Source: Candidatus Cloacimonadales bacterium (GTDB lineage: Bacteria; Cloacimonadota; Cloacimonadia; Cloacimonadales; JAFGVF01). Taken from it: 64,000 nt of DNA. Each line of letters opens with the position of its first letter. The stretch's first letter is position 1. The position numbers and the translations under genes were made by a program. The stretch covers positions 96,001 through 160,000 of the forward strand of contig CAXXOU010000002.1 of the NCBI GenBank assembly GCA_963677495.2, read 5' to 3'. This document shows positions 1,516 through 59,172 of this stretch, piece after piece. Below the pieces are notes generated by a model. It had not been told where the DNA came from. It saw only the letters and a program-made list of their open reading frames with translations, and did no database searches.

Positions 1516-1959
1516 TCAAATATAATCTTCATTGAAATCAACCCCGGCATTGTGTAACATTTGTTTATACTCTTCTTTAGAAGAAAATAGTTTGTGATGT
1601 TCCTGCTGATGTTTTATGTAATCCATTATTGGTTTTCTATCTCTCCACGTGATTGAGAATGCCCCATATCCATTTTGCCATCCTCTAAAACTTGGACATA
1701 CATCATTCTCCTTCATCCAATTTCCTAAAGATGCCTTCATAAGTTTAACAAAGTCAGATAAGCATTGCTGAGGATGTATTGAACACAGTACATGTATATG
1801 GTCATCCATCATGTCCATTTGATAAACGTATGATTTATGGTTCTTAAGAACTCCCCATAAATAGCCTAAAATCTCATCTCGTTTCGATAGATTCAATGTA
1901 CGATAACGTTCTTTTGTACTAAAGACAATGTGATACAATATTTGAGTAAAAGTGGACAT
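1516..1959 (-). CDS. tnpA: IS200/IS605-family (Y1 HUH) transposase, stand-alone, REP-associated type
   Basis: YHIVFSTK, HUH motif DHIH, WQNGYGAFS, catalytic Tyr in YIKHQQEHH; no tnpB nearby. Confidence 0.9.
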   Translation of the reverse strand: MSTFTQILYHIVFSTKERYRTLNLSKRDEILGYLWGVLKNHKSYVYQMDMMDDHIHVLCSIHPQQCLSDFVKLMKASLGNWMKENDVCPSFRGWQNGYGAFSITWRDRKPIMDYIKHQQEHHKLFSSKEEYKQMLHNAGVDFNEDYI

Positions 1960-8503: not shown

Positions 8504-8682
8504 ACAGTGCCTTTTGCAACGACTTAACTATATTTATTGCCCTTTTTGCACTCTTTCAGTGCTCTAGCAAGCAACGCACTGTTTTCCCACTGTGCACGCA
8601 CTGTGAAGGCACTGCCAACCCACTGTTTCACTGGGTGCACAGTGCGTGCACAGTGGGAAAGCAGTGGGATGACTGCGGTTTT
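8504..8682. repeat. About 180-bp dispersed repeat containing 11-bp-phased CACTG -> CAGTG palindrome (copy 1)
   Basis: CACTG at 8577,8588,8599,8610,8621; CAGTG at 8640,8651,8662; near-identical copy at 53508-53686. Confidence 0.9.
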
Positions 8683-8797: not shown

Positions 8798-8908
8798 TAC
8801 CTTCGGAATGGTCCTTAGACCTTGCGAATGGTTCTCTTGAAAGTTTACGTAAAAATAGCAACTTCCACCATTTGCAAGGTCTCGCAAAACTCAACCATTC
8901 CAAAGGTA
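8798..8908 (-). repeat. Solo REPIN-like unit of the 119-bp array family
   Basis: ACCTT-N4-ATGGT at 8799, 8819; ACCAT-N4-AAGGT at 8867, 8894; linkers match the array unit in reverse orientation. Confidence 0.8.
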
Positions 8909-51129: not shown

Positions 51130-51861
51130 TCATTTTTGAAAATTCCTTAGTCTAAAGCTGTCTCCGAGCATTGTAATTGGTTGTGAGTGATGGAGTAATC
51201 TATCAAGAATAGCAGTTGCTATCACATTGTCGTTAAAAATAGCTCCCCATTCATTAAACAACCTATTCGATGTTATGATTACTGATCTAAATTCGTATAA
51301 GAGATGGATGAGTCTAAAGAACAGATTAGCTGCCTTTGTCTGGAGAGGAAGATACCCCATCTCATCTATAACTATCAGATCATTCTTGGCTATATTGCTT
51401 AGATATTTATCTATGTTGTTATCTGCTTCAGCTAGTACAAGTTCTTCGATAAGGTTGTTCAGATTATAAAACACCACCTTATATCCTGCCTTTATTGCTT
51501 CATAACTGAGTGCTGTTGCAACATGAGTCTTACCTACTCCCGGAGGTCCCATTAAAATTATATTCCTCCTCTGCTCCAGCCAGACAAAGTTCTTCCACTC
51601 CTTTACTTGTCTTTTGGTTATTACTTGTTGATAAGCATAGTCGAACTCATCAAAGGTCTTTATTACCGGGATGTGAGCCTGTTTAAGTCTTCTGTTGATA
51701 TTGGTTTGATTCCTTCCTGAGTTCTCTTTTTCAAATAGATAATGTACGAACTCCAGATAAGTCATATTCTGTTTCTCTGCTTCTAAAACTGCACTTTCAA
51801 GAGTATTCAAAATATGAGTACAACGAGCCCTTTTGATGTATGTTTTAGTTATCTCTATCAT
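51130..51861 (-). CDS. istB: IS21 helper ATPase IstB
   Basis: GPPGVGKTH, IDEMGY, ILDRLLHH. Confidence 0.95.
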   Translation of the reverse strand: MIEITKTYIKRARCTHILNTLESAVLEAEKQNMTYLEFVHYLFEKENSGRNQTNINRRLKQAHIPVIKTFDEFDYAYQQVITKRQVKEWKNFVWLEQRRNIILMGPPGVGKTHVATALSYEAIKAGYKVVFYNLNNLIEELVLAEADNNIDKYLSNIAKNDLIVIDEMGYLPLQTKAANLFFRLIHLLYEFRSVIITSNRLFNEWGAIFNDNVIATAILDRLLHHSQPITMLGDSFRLRNFQK

Positions 51862-51862
51862 C

Positions 51863-53395
51863 TTATAACACCTTCATGTAGTCATCTAATGAGCGCTCTA
51901 TTAATGAACTCTCTGAGTCTTGTTGTGGTTCTGATTCTGATAATTCATTTAGCTTCATTTGTCTTACTTTTGCATTCAGAAGCTTCTCTATGGCTGTTGC
52001 CTTTACATGCGAAAGAGTCATTACCTCAGGAAGCACTGACTCCCATACATCTGTTTCATAGTTACGCTTAAACTTGCTTAAGGCTCTCAACTGATCCCTT
52101 GCTATTTTAGGGTTATCATTAACAAGCCTCTGGATTAGTTCTTCTCCTTGGATATATTCACTCATCTCATCCTTTACTCGCTCAATAAGCTCTTGTAGCA
52201 CTACCGTAAAATCCCGATAATGATTAGTGTTTTTGATGATTTTGCCTTTTTCTGTGCATAGCTCATGTTGGCAGATTTCCTTTCTTGTATAAATATCCAT
52301 CACCACTAAAGTGCTCTTTTCTTTTTGCACATATACCTGTTTTCGCTGATACTCTAATGGAACAGAGTACTTATTACCCTCATACGAGATTAAGCCTGTT
52401 TTATCTGCATTACGAACTTCTAAAGTGAAGATAAACTCTGGAATATCTTTTAGCTTTAACCTCTCTTCTTGCCATACTTCTGATGGTACTTTACGGGTTG
52501 TGCCATGGGTTCTGCCGTTAAAGTGTAAAAGCCACTCAAGTCCGCGTGAACGCAGGTCTGCCAGGTCTTTGAACTCTTTGCCATACATAAAGCCATGCTT
52601 TACTTCTGAGACATTACGCTCTACTTTACCCTTGCTTTGTGGATCATAGCCTTCGCATACATGAGGATGAAAGCCCGTTTTTGCTGCAAACTGATGGAAC
52701 TGATTATTTAAGATTACTTCCCGATAGCGTTCCTGTATTACTACAAGCTTTGTCTGGTCGTAAACACACTCTGAAGGGATACCTTCAAAATAGATAAAAG
52801 CTTCACGATGAGCTTCAATAAACCTTGATGTGTTATATGGTGTTGTGCTCCAATGGACATAGCTTTGACGCGAGTGGGAAAGCACAAAAACTATAAAATA
52901 AACTCTTTGACGTTTATTACCCAAAACTACTTTCATCTCACCTGGATCAACTTGAACCTGAACACCGGGAGCCGTCTCGATTACTGCATAATTACGGTAT
53001 TTATCGACAGGATAAGTCTGCTTTAGCTTACGAACAAAATCTCGGAAAGCTCTGTCTTTTGCTTTTATCTCAGGGAACTTTTTCTTAACTTCTAAATATA
53101 GTACACTAGCTCTTAATCGTGGATATTTGCTAAGCCTTTCGCGGACATATTGCTCACATATGGCAAAACTGCTTTCACGAATGCTATTGTTTATTAGTTC
53201 CATGAACTCATCAAGTGTCATATTTATGTATTTACCTACTGTTGTCTTTGATAGAGACAACTCCTCTGCGATCTTACGCTGACTATGCCCTTGCTTATGC
53301 ATAGTTTTTATTGAATGATACACTTCTACTCCAATCATACCTACTCCAAACTGTCTTGAAGTAGTCATTTTTAAAGGTTGGCAGTTTTGTACCAC
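51863..53395 (-). CDS. istA: IS21 transposase IstA
   Basis: HTH, ETAPGVQVQVD, YDQ, KGKVER; the real start may be the downstream MIGVEV. Confidence 0.95.
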   Translation of the reverse strand: MVQNCQPLKMTTSRQFGVGMIGVEVYHSIKTMHKQGHSQRKIAEELSLSKTTVGKYINMTLDEFMELINNSIRESSFAICEQYVRERLSKYPRLRASVLYLEVKKKFPEIKAKDRAFRDFVRKLKQTYPVDKYRNYAVIETAPGVQVQVDPGEMKVVLGNKRQRVYFIVFVLSHSRQSYVHWSTTPYNTSRFIEAHREAFIYFEGIPSECVYDQTKLVVIQERYREVILNNQFHQFAAKTGFHPHVCEGYDPQSKGKVERNVSEVKHGFMYGKEFKDLADLRSRGLEWLLHFNGRTHGTTRKVPSEVWQEERLKLKDIPEFIFTLEVRNADKTGLISYEGNKYSVPLEYQRKQVYVQKEKSTLVVMDIYTRKEICQHELCTEKGKIIKNTNHYRDFTVVLQELIERVKDEMSEYIQGEELIQRLVNDNPKIARDQLRALSKFKRNYETDVWESVLPEVMTLSHVKATAIEKLLNAKVRQMKLNELSESEPQQDSESSLIERSLDDYMKVL

Positions 53396-53686: not shown

Positions 53687-53906
53687 GATAGACAGTTTAA
53701 TCCAATTGTGCAGATGTTGTAAAATTGAGAAATTGTGACTATAACATTGCGATACCAAAGCCAGAGAAGTAATCCCATAATAGAGATAACATTCAGCAAA
53801 ATGACGCTTAATTGTTTGATACTATGGAAATTATTAGATACATCTAACATTAATATTGGTTATTAGACAATTCCAACTATAATATGGAAAATATTTGGAG
53901 GAAATA

Positions 53907-55886
53907 ATGCTGAATAAGAAAATATATATACTTACAATTACAGTACTTGCGCTCCTATTTCTTATAGGTTGTGACGATAGTACTACCGGTCCTGACTATG
54001 ATTATATGGATATCACTGCAGCCAATGCAGTAGATCTGATAAATAGTAATCCTGAATTAATAATAATTGATGTTTCAAACATGTGGAATCTTGGACACCT
54101 ACCAGGTGCTCTGAATTATCCTTTAGGTGATGGTAGCTTTGAAGCTGAAATCCCTAACTGGGATCCTATGGCTATGTATTTAATTTACTGCCACTCTGAT
54201 GCTGCTGCAATAGCTGCTGCTGAGATGCTTGAAGATGAAGATTTTAAACATGTCTATCGCCTGGTTGGTAACTTTGGAGGTTGGGTAGATTCCGGTTATC
54301 CAATCGAAGTAGCTGACTATATGGATATCACACCTGCTAACGCTCAAACTTTAATAAACGATAATCCCGGGATCTTCATAATTGATGTATCCAATATGTG
54401 GGAATATGGTCATATCCCAGGAGCTTTGGATGTCCCTTTAGGAGATGATAGTTTTGAGAATGCTATTCCTACATGGGATTCAATGGCTATGTATCTTGTA
54501 TATTGTCATACAGATGCAGCGTCAATGTCTGCTGCTCAAATGCTTACAGATGCAGATTTCCCACACGTTTATCGTTTAGAGGGAAATTACGGTGCTTGGG
54601 TTGGTGCAGGTTATCCCATCGAAGTAGAAGCATATAGAGATATTGCTCCAGCTGATGCGCAGACTTTGATAAACGATAATCCCGGAATCTTCATAATTGA
54701 TGTATCCAATATGTGGGAATATGGTCATATCCCCGGAGCTTTAGATGTTCCATTAGGAGATGACAGCTTTGAGAATGCTATTCCTACATGGGATTCAATG
54801 GCTATGTACCTTGTATATTGTCATACAGATGCAGCGTCAATGTCAGCAGCCCAAATGCTTGTTGATGCTAACTTCCCCCATGTATATCGTCTTGAAGGAA
54901 ATTACGGTGCTTGGGTTGGTGCAGGTTATCCAATCGAAGTAGAAGCATATAGAGATATTGCTCCTGCTGATGCACAGACCTTGATTAATGATAACCCGGA
55001 TATATTCATTATTGATGTTTCAAACATGTGGGAATATGGTCATATCCCCGGAGCTTTAGATGTTCCATTAGGAGATGATAGTTTTGAGAATGCTATTCCT
55101 ACATGGGATTCAATGGCTATGTACCTTGTATATTGTCATACAGATGCAGCGTCAATGTCAGCAGCCCAAATGCTTGTTGATGCTAACTTCCCCCATGTAT
55201 ATCGTCTTGAAGGAAATTACGGTGCTTGGGTTGGTGCAGGTTATCCAATCGAAGTAGAAGCATATAGAGATATTGCTCCTGCTGATGCACAGACCTTGAT
55301 TAATGATAACCCGGATATATTCATTATTGATGTTTCAAACATGTGGGAATATGGTCATATCCCCGGAGCTTTAGATGTTCCATTAGGAGATGATAGTTTT
55401 GAGAATGCTATTCCTACATGGGATTCAATGGCTATGTACCTTGTATATTGTCATACAGATGCAGCGTCAATGTCAGCAGCCCAAATGCTTGTTGATGCTA
55501 ACTTCCCTCATGTTTATCGTCTTGAAGGGAACTACGGTGCTTGGGTTGATACAGGCTATCCAATCGAAGTAAAAGCATATAGGGACATTACAGCAGAAGA
55601 GCTTTATCAGATGTCTATGGATAACTCAGAATTAGTAATCATAGATGTTTCTCCTATGTATGATCAAGGTCATATTCCAGGAGCAATAAACTATTATGTG
55701 GGTGACGGTTCACTTGATAATGCAATTCCTATGTTAGATTCAGCCGGTTATTATGCAGTATACTGCCATACAGATTCAGCTTCGATGCTGGGTGCACAAA
55801 AACTTATTGATGCAGGATTCATACATGTTTACCGTCTTGAAGGAAACTATGATGCCTGGGTTAATGCAGGTTATCCAGTCGAGTAA
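53907..55886 (+). CDS. Lipoprotein with six tandem rhodanese-like domains
   Basis: Lipobox LIGC; six IIDVS..GH(I/L)PGA..YCH(S/T)D..VYRL.GN..W...GYP units; 315-bp DNA repeats. Confidence 0.9.
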   Translation: MLNKKIYILTITVLALLFLIGCDDSTTGPDYDYMDITAANAVDLINSNPELIIIDVSNMWNLGHLPGALNYPLGDGSFEAEIPNWDPMAMYLIYCHSDAAAIAAAEMLEDEDFKHVYRLVGNFGGWVDSGYPIEVADYMDITPANAQTLINDNPGIFIIDVSNMWEYGHIPGALDVPLGDDSFENAIPTWDSMAMYLVYCHTDAASMSAAQMLTDADFPHVYRLEGNYGAWVGAGYPIEVEAYRDIAPADAQTLINDNPGIFIIDVSNMWEYGHIPGALDVPLGDDSFENAIPTWDSMAMYLVYCHTDAASMSAAQMLVDANFPHVYRLEGNYGAWVGAGYPIEVEAYRDIAPADAQTLINDNPDIFIIDVSNMWEYGHIPGALDVPLGDDSFENAIPTWDSMAMYLVYCHTDAASMSAAQMLVDANFPHVYRLEGNYGAWVGAGYPIEVEAYRDIAPADAQTLINDNPDIFIIDVSNMWEYGHIPGALDVPLGDDSFENAIPTWDSMAMYLVYCHTDAASMSAAQMLVDANFPHVYRLEGNYGAWVDTGYPIEVKAYRDITAEELYQMSMDNSELVIIDVSPMYDQGHIPGAINYYVGDGSLDNAIPMLDSAGYYAVYCHTDSASMLGAQKLIDAGFIHVYRLEGNYDAWVNAGYPVE

Positions 55887-55998: not shown

Positions 55999-56081
55999 AC
56001 CACGCAACATCCACGGGTAAACCACGCCTAAACCACGCAAGCCGTGGTTAACCCGTGGTTTGGGCGTGGTCAACCCGTGGT
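55999..56081. repeat. 11-bp-phased palindromic element (CCACG x4 -> CGTGG x4)
   Basis: CCACG at 56000,56011,56022,56033; CGTGG at 56043,56054,56065,56076. Confidence 0.9.
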
Positions 56082-56376
56082 AAAGAATCTAATTGATACT
56101 TCATAGAACACAGTTTATCAGAATACATCAAAGACCTTAGATTTTTTATGAGTTTCAACAATACATAGTTATTGACATAAGATGACTAGGGGAGAATATT
56201 AACTTATAAAGTTTGTGGGGAGACTGATAAGCAATTTCAGTTTCGCACAATTAAGTTAGTATTTATTACTGGGAAATCTATCTTCAAAATCAGGGGATAA
56301 TTATTACTTATCATTGAAGTACAACAAAGCAGATTACATCTATTATCGTAATCTGTTTACAGATTAGAGGTTCCTT

Positions 56377-57399
56377 ATGAAAAAAACAATACTTATCCTT
56401 CTTCTTATACTATTATCGTTCTCGATTTTTGCTGAAATCATCACACAAGAGTTCTATTCAATACCTAACAAAGATGGGCAACTATTTCATCATTACTTAA
56501 GTGGAAACATCATGCCAAGAATCACGGCAGCAGACGCAAGAATAGGTGATGAATATGATAGCTTTGCTGGCACAAGAGCTTGTAGTAGAGCATTCCTTAG
56601 CTATCCAATACCTGCCAATTGTGACTCCCTTTTAGCAGAGGGGTATGCTTTAACTCATGCTGAGATGAGAGTGTTTATTGGTAGTTCAACCGGAAACAAT
56701 TTAGTCCCACACACTTACCCAATCTATGATGGGAATGAACCCGGAGTGAGTGAATTTACCACCTATATCGAGAGAGTAGCACTTGGAGATTCACTTGTAA
56801 TAGAGGATTGGGATACACCTGCACTTAGTAGCCCTTATGTATGGCTTACTGAAGAGACATTTGTCGATACTGTTTGCTTAATAGATAGTGTCTACTACAC
56901 ATATTTCGATGCAACACAAGAAGTACTCAATACGATAGAAGAGGATAGAGAAGTACTTTCCTTAAGAATCAGACTGTATCCTGATGCAGATTATGATGAG
57001 TTCACGGATGCTATGGAGATTAATACAGGAGATTTGTTTAATATAATCTTGGAATATCAAGATTGGAGTTTAATCGGAAGAGTTCCTAAGATAACCTATA
57101 CTTTTGATAATAATCCTCAAAGCAATGAGGAGTTAACCCAACCGGATATTAGTTTATATAACCAATATCCTAATCCCTTCAATCAACAAATCAACTTCAA
57201 AAGCAAGGAGAATGGTAAACTTCAAATCTTCAATATCAAGGGCCAGTTAGTTAAGACACTGACAATCACACCAAATGTAGAAATCAAATGGGATGGAAAA
57301 GATGAAAAAGGAAGCCCAATACCTGTAGGAGTTTATCTTTCCCGTCTTACAACAGAGAGTATCATAACTAAACCCCGGAAGTTCCTCTTCTGGAAATAG
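56377..57399 (+). CDS. Secreted protein with FlgD-Ig/T9SS-like C-terminal domain
   Basis: Signal peptide; YPNPFN..IFNIKGQLV..WDGKD..GVY. Confidence 0.75.
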   Translation: MKKTILILLLILLSFSIFAEIITQEFYSIPNKDGQLFHHYLSGNIMPRITAADARIGDEYDSFAGTRACSRAFLSYPIPANCDSLLAEGYALTHAEMRVFIGSSTGNNLVPHTYPIYDGNEPGVSEFTTYIERVALGDSLVIEDWDTPALSSPYVWLTEETFVDTVCLIDSVYYTYFDATQEVLNTIEEDREVLSLRIRLYPDADYDEFTDAMEINTGDLFNIILEYQDWSLIGRVPKITYTFDNNPQSNEELTQPDISLYNQYPNPFNQQINFKSKENGKLQIFNIKGQLVKTLTITPNVEIKWDGKDEKGSPIPVGVYLSRLTTESIITKPRKFLFWK

Positions 57400-57407
57400 T
57401 TAAAAAT

Positions 57408-58521
57408 CTGTACCTTCGTAATGGTTGAGTTTACGAATCCTTCCGAATGGTGCAAATCGGAGAAACTGACGGTTATGCGACATGAGTACCATTGAGAAGG
57501 TCTACGACCATTATCAAGGTAGAAAACTGTACCTTCGTAATGGTTGAGTTTACGAATCCTTCCGAATGGTGCAAATCGGAGAAACTGACGGTTATGCGAC
57601 ATGAGTACCATTGAGAAGGTCTACGACCATTATCAAGGTAGAAAACTGTACCTTCGTAATGGTTGAGTTTACGAATCCTTCCGAATGGTGCAAATCGGAG
57701 AGATTGACAGTTGTGTGACAAGAGTACCATTGAGAAGGTCTATGACCATTATCAAGGTAGAAAACTGTACCTTCGTAATGGTTGAGTTTACGAATCCTTC
57801 CGAATGGTGCAAATCGGAGAAACTGACGGTTATGCGACATGAGTACCATTGAGAAGGTCTATGACCATTATCAAGGTAGAAAACTGTACCTTCGTAATGG
57901 TTGAGTTTACGAATCCTTCCGAATGGTGCAAATCGGAGAAACTGACGGTTATGCGACATGAGTACCATTGAGAAGGTCTATGACCATTATCAAGGTAGAA
58001 AACTGTACTTTCGTAATGGCTGAGTTTACGATTCCTTCTGAATGTTGCAACTTAGAGGGATTAACGGTTATGTGACAAGAGTACCATTGAGAAGGTCTAC
58101 GACCATTATCAAGGTAGAAAACTGTACCTTCGTAATGGTTGAGTTTACGAATCCTTCCGAATGGTGCAAATCGGAGAAACTGACGGTTATGCGACATGAG
58201 TACCATTGAGAAGGTCTACGACCATTATCAAGGTAGAAAACTGTACCTTCGTAATGGTTGAGTTTACGAATCCTTCCGAATGGTGCAAATCGGAGAAACT
58301 GACGGTTATGCGACATGAGTACCATTGAGAAGGTCTACGACCATTATCAAGGTAGAAAACTGTACTTTCGTAATGGTTGAGCTTGCGAATCCTTCCGAAT
58401 GGTGCAACTCGGAGAGATTGACAGTTGTGTGACAAGAGTACCATTGAGAAGGTCTATGACCATTATCAAGGTAGAAAACTTGGAGGAATTGACTGTTGTG
58501 TGTAAATAGCACCATTGAGAA
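57408..58521. repeat. Tandem array of nine 119-bp REPIN-like units plus degenerate partial unit
   Basis: Unit starts 57408,57527,57646,57765,57884,58003,58122,58241,58360; each unit = 2x (A/T)CCTT-N4-ATGGT then 2x ACCAT-N4-AAGGT. Confidence 0.95.
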
Positions 58522-58526
58522 TACAG

Positions 58527-59045
58527 TTAATACTCTAAGCCTTCAGATTCTTTACCAGATTTGTAAAATCTAAAACTCTCTAAATAAGCATCAAAAGATC
58601 CATAATAGTCCACATAATACTTATTAAATACAAATGAATTATTAGTTAGAGCTAAAGATGAGAATTGCTTTAAATAGAGACTTTTAGGATTAGAATGTAT
58701 GTAGTTAATAACAGTATCTAAATATGTATTACCTTTAATCTCTTTAAGTTTCATCGCACTTTCAAATAGAGTCCCGATTCGTTTATGTCTTGCATTATAG
58801 TACTGAGAATATGTATTAAATATATAACGGAACCACTTAAAAATAAGCTTATCGCTGTTTTGTTGGACTAAGAAATGATAATGATTGGGCATGAGAGCAA
58901 ATGCAATAATATTAACATAATCAGGATACTTTGATTCTCTGATAACTGATAAAAGCTTATTGTAATCATAGCTATCTATAAATATTTTTCCTTTGTTACA
59001 ACCTCTATTGAATACATGATAGTACAAGTTCTTCTCCGTAATCAT
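58527..59045 (-). CDS. REP-associated tyrosine transposase (RAYT-like, Y1 HUH)
   Basis: YYHVFNRG, AFALMPNHYH (HUH), YYNARHKRIGTLFE, catalytic Tyr YIHSNP; SD GGAGG. Confidence 0.85.
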   Translation of the reverse strand: MITEKNLYYHVFNRGCNKGKIFIDSYDYNKLLSVIRESKYPDYVNIIAFALMPNHYHFLVQQNSDKLIFKWFRYIFNTYSQYYNARHKRIGTLFESAMKLKEIKGNTYLDTVINYIHSNPKSLYLKQFSSLALTNNSFVFNKYYVDYYGSFDAYLESFRFYKSGKESEGLEY

Positions 59046-59120
59046 TTATCCTCCATGAAATAACATGATTCTCGCAATTATAGTGAATGTCAATAAATAA
59101 TGTAATTGATAACCGTTTGT

Positions 59121-59172
59121 GAGTTGTGTGACAAGAGTACCATTGAGAAGGTCTGCGACCATTATCAAGGTA
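59121..59172. repeat. Half unit of the 119-bp repeat upstream of the RAYT gene
   Basis: GTTGTGTGACAAGAGTACCATTGAGAAGGTCTGCGACCATTATCAAGGTA matches the right arm of variant units. Confidence 0.9.

Follow-up and report, generated by a model that had tools for sequence, protein, structure and literature searches.

A tagless, double-bulged REP-like hairpin and its tandem array beside a RAYT-like Y1/HUH transposase gene in a Cloacimonadales genome

A stretch of 64,000 nucleotides from a Cloacimonadales genome (the window) contains a tandem array of 119-bp units next to an intact gene for a Y1/HUH protein, which raises the question of how gene and repeats are related and how the array arose. A sequence-only reading had described nine units plus a decayed partial unit near the stop codon of the gene and a half-unit on its other side, all of which were confirmed. 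The features of the locus are given in window coordinates:

57408..58478, + strand: tandem array of nine 119-bp REPIN/BIME-like units (TRF, variant order, read-graph depth)
57412..57451, + strand: REP a of unit 1, boxes with triplets CGT and CCG, 12-nt loop (predicted double-bulged hairpin)
57488..57520, - strand: REP b of unit 1, boxes with triplets GAT and CTC, 5-nt loop (predicted hairpin)
58479..58521, - strand: decayed part-unit, spacer and one REP b box (sequence)
58527..59045, - strand: Y1/HUH nuclease-transposase gene, RAYT/TnpA-REP-like, 172 aa (PF01797, motifs, fold)
59117..59172, - strand: half-unit upstream of the Y1/HUH gene, spacer and complete REP b at 59139-59171 (similarity)
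8799..8907, strand not assigned: dispersed, solitary REPIN of this repeat family, outside the array (pattern search)

TRF reported a period of 119 with 9.1 copies and 94% matches over 57404-58480. Units start at 57408 + 119n and consist of REP a, a 36-nt spacer, the inverted REP b and a short linker. Both REPs recur every 119 bp in the array, REP a being degenerate in unit 6. The decayed part-unit ends 5 bases from the TAA of the gene (58527-58529), and the half-unit matches the right-hand half of units 3 and 9 at 93% identity and lies as a direct repeat relative to the array. Throughout the window the pattern ACCWT-N4-AWGGT was matched 33 times (0.34 expected). The surroundings hold further repeats: an IS21-type element (istA, istB) at 51130-53395 ends in a tandemly repeated 23-bp sequence, a lipoprotein-like protein encoded at 53895-55886 has six rhodanese domains, of which four are near-identical repeats of 315 bp, and CCACG/CGTGG words follow each other at 56016-56085 with a spacing of about 11 bp in a tract that flips orientation. 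A secreted-type protein with a FlgD-Ig/T9SS-like C-terminal domain is encoded at 56377-57399, its stop codon 8 bases before the array. A CACTG/CAGTG-phased repeat was seen near REPINs of this family at 8600-8670 of the window and at L026:2320-2411.

The 172-aa protein is intact and was matched by PF01797 over its cut-off (E 1.4e-10), while the NCBIfam model REP_Tyr_transpos gave a score of 37.7, under its cut-off of 80. As the sequence-only reading had claimed of this Y1-HUH gene, it carries NHYH (H55, H57) and a tyrosine within YIHSNP (Y115), together with GTLFE and a HUH-Tyr distance of 60 aa. It keeps every one of the 24 columns that are invariant among 40 homologs, including the HUH residues, the tyrosine and NP. 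F94 and E95, aligned to the WQ of the E. coli protein, are invariant in 40 homologs as well, and the canonical W94/Q95-type motif that binds the guide of GTAG REPs was not found. The predicted structure (pLDDT 91.8) has its best fold match in E. coli TnpA-REP bound to REP (4ER8), followed by the IS608 and ISDra2 enzymes. Pfam detected no second domain and no C-terminal HTH in this protein or in 7 homologs; a Bac_DnaA_C-like match was seen in reference L115. The genome contains 14 Y1 loci, one of them also in the window (1606-1950, - strand). The closest paralog, found among loci not all compared pairwise, is 56% identical, and 50 of the 97 identical residues are encoded by different codons. 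As expected of a REPtron, this is a single-copy gene with divergent paralogs and an intact HUH and YxxxNP. Membership in IS200/IS605 does not fit: the motif is YxxxNP and not YxxxQ, an identical copy was not found and the neighbours are murB and a secreted protein.

The repeat had been read as a 14-bp core, and each unit as one long hairpin. Co-variation supports a two-box doublet instead. The true repeat unit is a 33-41-nt hairpin composed of two ACCTT-xyz-AATGGT boxes with two bulged T's, in which the boxes of one doublet are predicted to pair with each other in a stem with one bulged T per arm. Within doublets 2.31 of 3 triplet positions pair, compared with 1.17 after shuffling (maximum 1.40 in 5000), a statistic that is inflated by related copies, and the co-variation spans 31 triplet-pair types. 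Among 30 distinct pairs from 119-bp-type units, 2.5 of 6 triplet positions pair across the whole unit versus 4.8 of 6 within the REPs. The long hairpin is the minimum-energy fold of unit 1 (z -2.9), whereas local hairpins are the minimum-energy structures of units 3, 6 and 9 (z -3.1, -1.05 and -1.6). It is therefore a possible fold, rejected as a functional structure because pairing across the unit is not conserved and the co-variation favours short doublets. The units are inverted pairs, as their earlier description as REPIN-like implied, but they do not have the two like REPs and the conserved whole-unit hairpin of a REPIN in the strict sense. Of the 39 convergent REP pairs in the genome, 22 combine an a-tail with a b-tail, two are a+a and 15 include an unclassified tail.

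The foot and loop-closing stem positions of 124 distinct copies contain 68 G.T pairs and no C.A pair on one strand, so that one strand of the hairpin appears to be the selected strand. A GT[AG]G foot was found in none of the 124 copies on this folding strand and in three on the other strand. The canonical GTAG tag is thus missing from the 5' foot of the stem, and the earlier claim that these repeats differ from GTAG-type REPs was borne out. An excess of cases in which the folding strand equals the gene strand just after stop codons (30 to 8) was discarded as a geometric result of convergent pairs.

It had been proposed to search the whole genome for such doublets. In the 3.4 Mb on 4 contigs, 163 ACCTT-xyz-AATGGT doublets were found at 94 loci, compared with none in 3 shuffled genomes. 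Only 15 of them lie inside long ORFs, which make up 85% of the genome. The flanks that travel with REP copies are very variable in length and shared flanks stop at many points; no fixed element end or cleavage motif emerged from comparing the shared flanks of the copies. This is as expected if cuts occur at low-specificity sites away from the hairpin. A promoter scan returned 5 sites where 7.1 were expected. In viral contigs 4 stretches had a doublet, none of them near the gene, and no homolog of the Y1 protein was found there.

Within the phylum, the repeat accompanies the protein. Both flanks of the gene carry the abundant extragenic imperfect palindrome expected of a REPtron, and the 56%-identical paralog on contig C4 has the same REPs on both sides. 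Three distant paralogs (28-37% identity) had no adjacent REPs of this family. These REPs also accompany homologs of 45-55% identity from other families within the order. In a survey of 177 genomes of the phylum, the doublet was present in 21 of the 23 genomes with a homolog of at least 200 bits, in 16 of 40 with weaker homologs and in 10 of 114 without a homolog; the 200-bit threshold was chosen after seeing the data, and related genomes are not independent. The two remaining genomes with a homolog above the threshold carry a C-bulge variant. The sequence-only reading had named RAYT homologs devoid of these repeats as part of what would speak against it; close homologs instead sit between the same hairpins, which supports its view of a RAYT-like gene with cognate non-GTAG repeats. 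One family had doublets in none of its 76 genomes, though 16 carry distant homologs. Two drafts, G137 and G140, speak against the link: they contain 53 and 46 doublets, yet no homolog was found in them at E<=1e-20. A complete congener has 3 doublets and no homolog with the queries used. Its suhB-murB gap measures 54 bp versus 8.5 kb in this genome, where the interval holds the IS21 element, two secreted-type proteins, the array and the Y1/HUH gene. A congener's homolog (L010, G002:C272) is split into two frames and is still flanked by T-bulged REPs, and an intact close relative is present on a metagenomic contig (L159). At L046 the flanking repeat extends into the 3' end of the reading frame, whose final residues and stop codon it provides.

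More distant relatives were collected by an alignment-based scan of genome contigs, as a single-protein scan gave nothing. This yielded 561 confirmed relatives, from which 79 loci were kept, plus 80 metagenomic loci, 23 of which were inspected. The best-scoring named loci belong to Cloacimonadota. Many of these relatives lie between related two-box hairpins. The hairpin is perfect and lacks the extra T in Chloroflexota, Calditrichota and Ignavibacteriota; other homologs have C-bulged forms or forms whose outer stem reads ACA/TGT instead of ACC/GGT, and those of Anaerolineales a distinct form. By strict counting, many family members showed none of the tested hairpin types; at most loci without the tested patterns, however, the hairpin next to the gene is stronger than any within it. 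A careful tree was built from 60 chosen rows, of which 54 had been assigned a hairpin type, either from the pattern or on inspection, and 6 were outside references, plasmid proteins judged 2.1-like by motif. The E. coli protein, whose branch was very long in a quick 129-row tree, was omitted. All 54 rows with flanking hairpins and no HTH formed one clade (100/100), a clade of 15 rows united the bulged hairpin types (99/97), and the present gene fell into a short-tail group of 10 (100/100); in both trees the nearest references were the 2.1-type plasmid proteins. As judged from these sequences, related hairpins track the protein tree across several phyla, and since kin share hairpin labels this shows tracking and does not prove co-evolution.

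Movement of the gene itself is suggested by five loci of the Anaerolineales clade (L064, L076, L079, L080 and L088), where an hsdM gene (HsdM_N and N6_Mtase) follows the REPtron. Of 15 loci that could be scored, these 5 have a direct repeat of the initial 36-106 bp of hsdM on the far side of the REPtron, the stretches concerned lying 100-180 bp upstream and 90-260 bp downstream of the gene. By their sequence, these duplications look like whole-gene insertion with a target duplication of variable length. A sister group (L058, L070, L071, L100, L105 and L112) has an AAGTG..CACCT/AGGTG..CACTT two-palindrome hairpin beside the gene.

How the array grew can be read in part from its variants. The array had been called homogeneous, and in-place amplification by the HUH enzyme had been proposed. 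It is instead a mosaic whose units follow the order A A B, A' A' C, A A B'. The B-type spacer also occurs in the half-unit and in the decayed piece, either side of the gene, and for this reason the B-type unit looks ancestral. This order suggests that growth probably took place in several rounds, with block duplication and mixing. Amplification by the enzyme stays plausible; a homogeneous product of a single rolling-circle step does not, as one-step copying of one monomer does not fit the mosaic. In-place amplification is also not a new idea, since rolling-circle-like models for BIME arrays are in print (PMC2817692, PMC3333891).

The strongest rival explanation concerns the amplification step only. 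It holds that the enzyme seeded the repeats and that the host lengthened the array by slippage, unequal RecA exchange or gene conversion. The three-unit periodicity and the mosaic sharing of variants agree with it, as do arrays of this REP at a distance from Y1 genes (C1:523126, C4:701534 and C4:1185845) and the many arrays of other families. Against it, 8 of the genome's 14 Y1 genes have a tandem array no more than 600 bp away versus 2.9% of random places, an approximately 20-fold enrichment beside Y1 genes of several kinds, although the direct repeats with which REPtrons start would favour arrays near such genes under host lengthening as well. The longest array of this REP adjoins its own gene, and in vitro the TnpA-REP of E. 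coli generates additional units (PMC3333891). Between enzyme-driven and host-driven lengthening the balance is about even, and the host version by itself is given a little less than an even chance. Arrays of at least 2.8 copies were seen at 8 of 92 homolog loci, so that long arrays do not appear to be a trait of the family, and short-read drafts may collapse arrays.

Other arrays of this kind were observed. At L009:1034-2400 a homolog of 46% identity lies inside an 83-bp array with four units per side, the gene standing as if it replaced a spacer, and a close metagenomic homolog has a 4 x 99 bp array. Directly upstream of a distant paralog (L002), five 97-bp units of a different repeat family form an array at G000:C2:349911-350396, with further copies of that family downstream.

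Taken together, the locus is probably a REPtron, in which an intact Y1/HUH gene stands among tagless double-bulged hairpins that its product likely recognises and nicks when single-stranded, and the array is a BIME-2-like cluster. By analogy with studied enzymes, the 163 hairpins were likely cut and spread by this transposase and its relatives. Following the precedent of E. coli TnpA-REP and the IS200/IS605 enzymes, the ACCTT..AATGGT strand would fold when exposed at a replication fork or in an R-loop, and the enzyme would bind the stem, the two bulged T's serving it as the mark that a GTAG tag provides elsewhere. Bulges and loops of hairpins are known to act as strand and specificity marks (PMC8266576). 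Tyr115 would then nick low-specificity sites at a variable distance from the hairpin; strand transfer or extension from the freed 3'-OH would copy REPs with variable flanks to new sites, and the same step could add units in place. The array itself may have passed from an ancestral gene-flanking B-type unit to an A variant and on to multi-unit blocks that were duplicated and mixed.

Readings that leave the transposase aside fare poorly. The paired boxes might be operators for a double-strand DNA-binding protein, with the transposase gene as a bystander, and each box is indeed near-palindromic with invariant outer bases. The central triplets nevertheless co-vary with the partner box, wobble pairs are strand-biased, the box spacing of 19-20 or 26-27 bp is not helical and the repeat type changes with the transposase clade, all of which renders operators improbable. 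The earlier idea of a reservoir that is transcribed and processed into structured RNAs of about 119 nt gained nothing from the analysis and appears no more probable than operators. The array begins 8 bases after a + strand gene and could be co-transcribed with it, and the preferred strand is the better folder as RNA too. Single REPs between co-directional genes, in turn, have the folding strand on the mRNA strand in 11 cases and on the opposite strand in 20, and this want of an mRNA-strand preference points to DNA rather than RNA. Each unit also has one hairpin per strand and no conserved whole-unit hairpin, and no Rfam family reached its cut-off in a search that gave one chance-level match.

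Integron attC sites have a box layout of two palindromic boxes. Units that recall this logic through two palindromic boxes with extrahelical bases (PMC8266576), and a gene between direct repeats in the manner of a cassette, might suggest attC-like or CRISPR-like repeats, a highly unlikely reading given that no integron integrase, which a cassette array would call for, was found over the TIGR02249 cut-off in the genome (0 matches), and given no unique spacers or cassettes between the nine units. Equally unlikely is an assembly artefact made from one or two units. Contig depth, a rough measure of repeat copy number, was taken from assembly-graph pieces of 4 runs of one sample, the same from which the assembly was made, and none of the contigs of these runs crosses the array from end to end. 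The piece of graph that covers 57408-57504, common to 6 of the 9 units, reached 5.8-7.1x the depth of the single-copy flank, the array junction piece reached about 6x where 6 copies were expected, the variant units have separate graph pieces of their own, and 19 columns vary across the nine units. As far as can be told from depth, this argues against an artefact.

Comparison with described systems places the locus closest to the E. coli REPtron (rayT/yafM, TnpA-REP subclass 2.2), with which it shares the Y1/HUH fold. There too, the gene is bordered by clusters of inverted two-type REP pairs, and the BIME-2 clusters have bulged stems and tandem copies that are conserved within a locus (PMC3333891, PMC2817692). 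The present array likewise consists of head-to-tail two-REP modules alternating in orientation, and its pairing of a-tail with b-tail REPs recalls y and z in BIMEs. In contrast to E. coli, the hairpin has two boxes, two bulges and no GTAG foot, and the proteins share 15% identity, with FE where E. coli has WQ. The REPINs of P. fluorescens SBW25 are also inverted REP pairs, occur in tandem clusters of up to five beside RAYT genes and belong to several RAYTs per genome, each with its own repeat (PMC3116915, PMC3337134). Both REPs of an SBW25 REPIN are of one group and the whole hairpin is kept, whereas here pairs are usually a+b and the long hairpin is not conserved. TIRtrons share with this locus non-GTAG repeats, some of them 'double palindromic' and in dimers or clusters, that flank genes of tyrosine transposases (PMC3733652). 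They differ in that TIRs are terminal inverted repeats, often GGGGWSAS, while the units here are directly repeated REPIN units; in addition, the TIRYTs of subclass 2.1 carry an HTH and this protein does not, the TIR sequences being compared by description (PMC3733652). Subclass 2.6 shares atypical non-GTAG hairpins and differs by WQ and an HUH-Tyr distance of 82 aa, and subclass 2.8 shares NHYH and differs by W[YH], a proline-rich N-terminus and GTAG REPs (PMC6006769). The distinguishing motifs of 2.8, as described, were not found in this protein, the trees having been built with references of other kinds.

The protein appears 2.1-like, as judged by motifs and by plasmid references that were themselves chosen by motif. 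With subclass 2.1/Group 1 it shares NH[YF]H, F[QE], Y[IV]HxNP, the HUH-Tyr distance of 60 aa and a downstream serine motif, and it fits the second motif set of this subclass (PMC6006769, Table 1), with FE for FQ, no core insertion and a proximal serine motif. It has YIHSNP, while YIHLNP is common in its relatives (2.1 motif Y[IV]HLNP). Unlike subclass 2.1, whose median length is 238 aa, it has 172 aa and no C-terminal HTH (PMC6006769). Within the parts of the literature consulted here, no REPs are reported for subclass 2.1 (PMC6006769), abundant REPs are tied to RAYT Groups 2 and 3 only (PMC5581495) and Group 1 is treated as domesticated (10.1101/2021.07.10.451892). The present gene, flanked by abundant REP hairpins, departs from this picture (PMC6006769, PMC5581495), which may reflect searches that required GT[AG]G. 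No two-box REP is listed in the REP table of PMC6006769, as compared in part by motif search. Literature searches by motif text and by Cloacimonadota with REP/RAYT terms gave no such REP among the matches listed, and figures or tables outside the searched text might hold one. Arrays beside RAYT genes are already known, about one third of RAYT genes adjoining a BIME (PMC2817692, PMC3333891), as are rolling-circle-like models, and the array alone is ordinary REP biology. What is new, on the strength of the sequence comparisons, is a tagless double-bulged REP tied to an HTH-less clade with subclass 2.1 motifs.

A broader proposal, which we consider possible but less likely than not, is that an overlooked RAYT-REP lineage spanning several phyla is hidden in the supposedly 'REP-less' subclass 2.1. 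It would require jointly that HTH-less enzymes read tagless hairpins, that copying with variable flanks makes arrays and moves the enzyme's own gene, and that strand identity was acquired stepwise by added bulges (perfect, then C- or T-bulged hairpins) in step with the protein. If so, the family would supply an HUH cutter that needs no guide and comes in natural variants of differing specificity, as well as a stage between IS200 and RAYTs that has not been domesticated. The family also challenges the published view of subclass 2.1/Group 1 as REP-free. The systems in which the spread of REPs and the growth of BIME arrays have been tested all depend on a GTAG tag; this one offers tagless pairs of protein and hairpin with natural compensatory variants across phyla, and the nine-unit array with its marked units could report the gain or loss of units.
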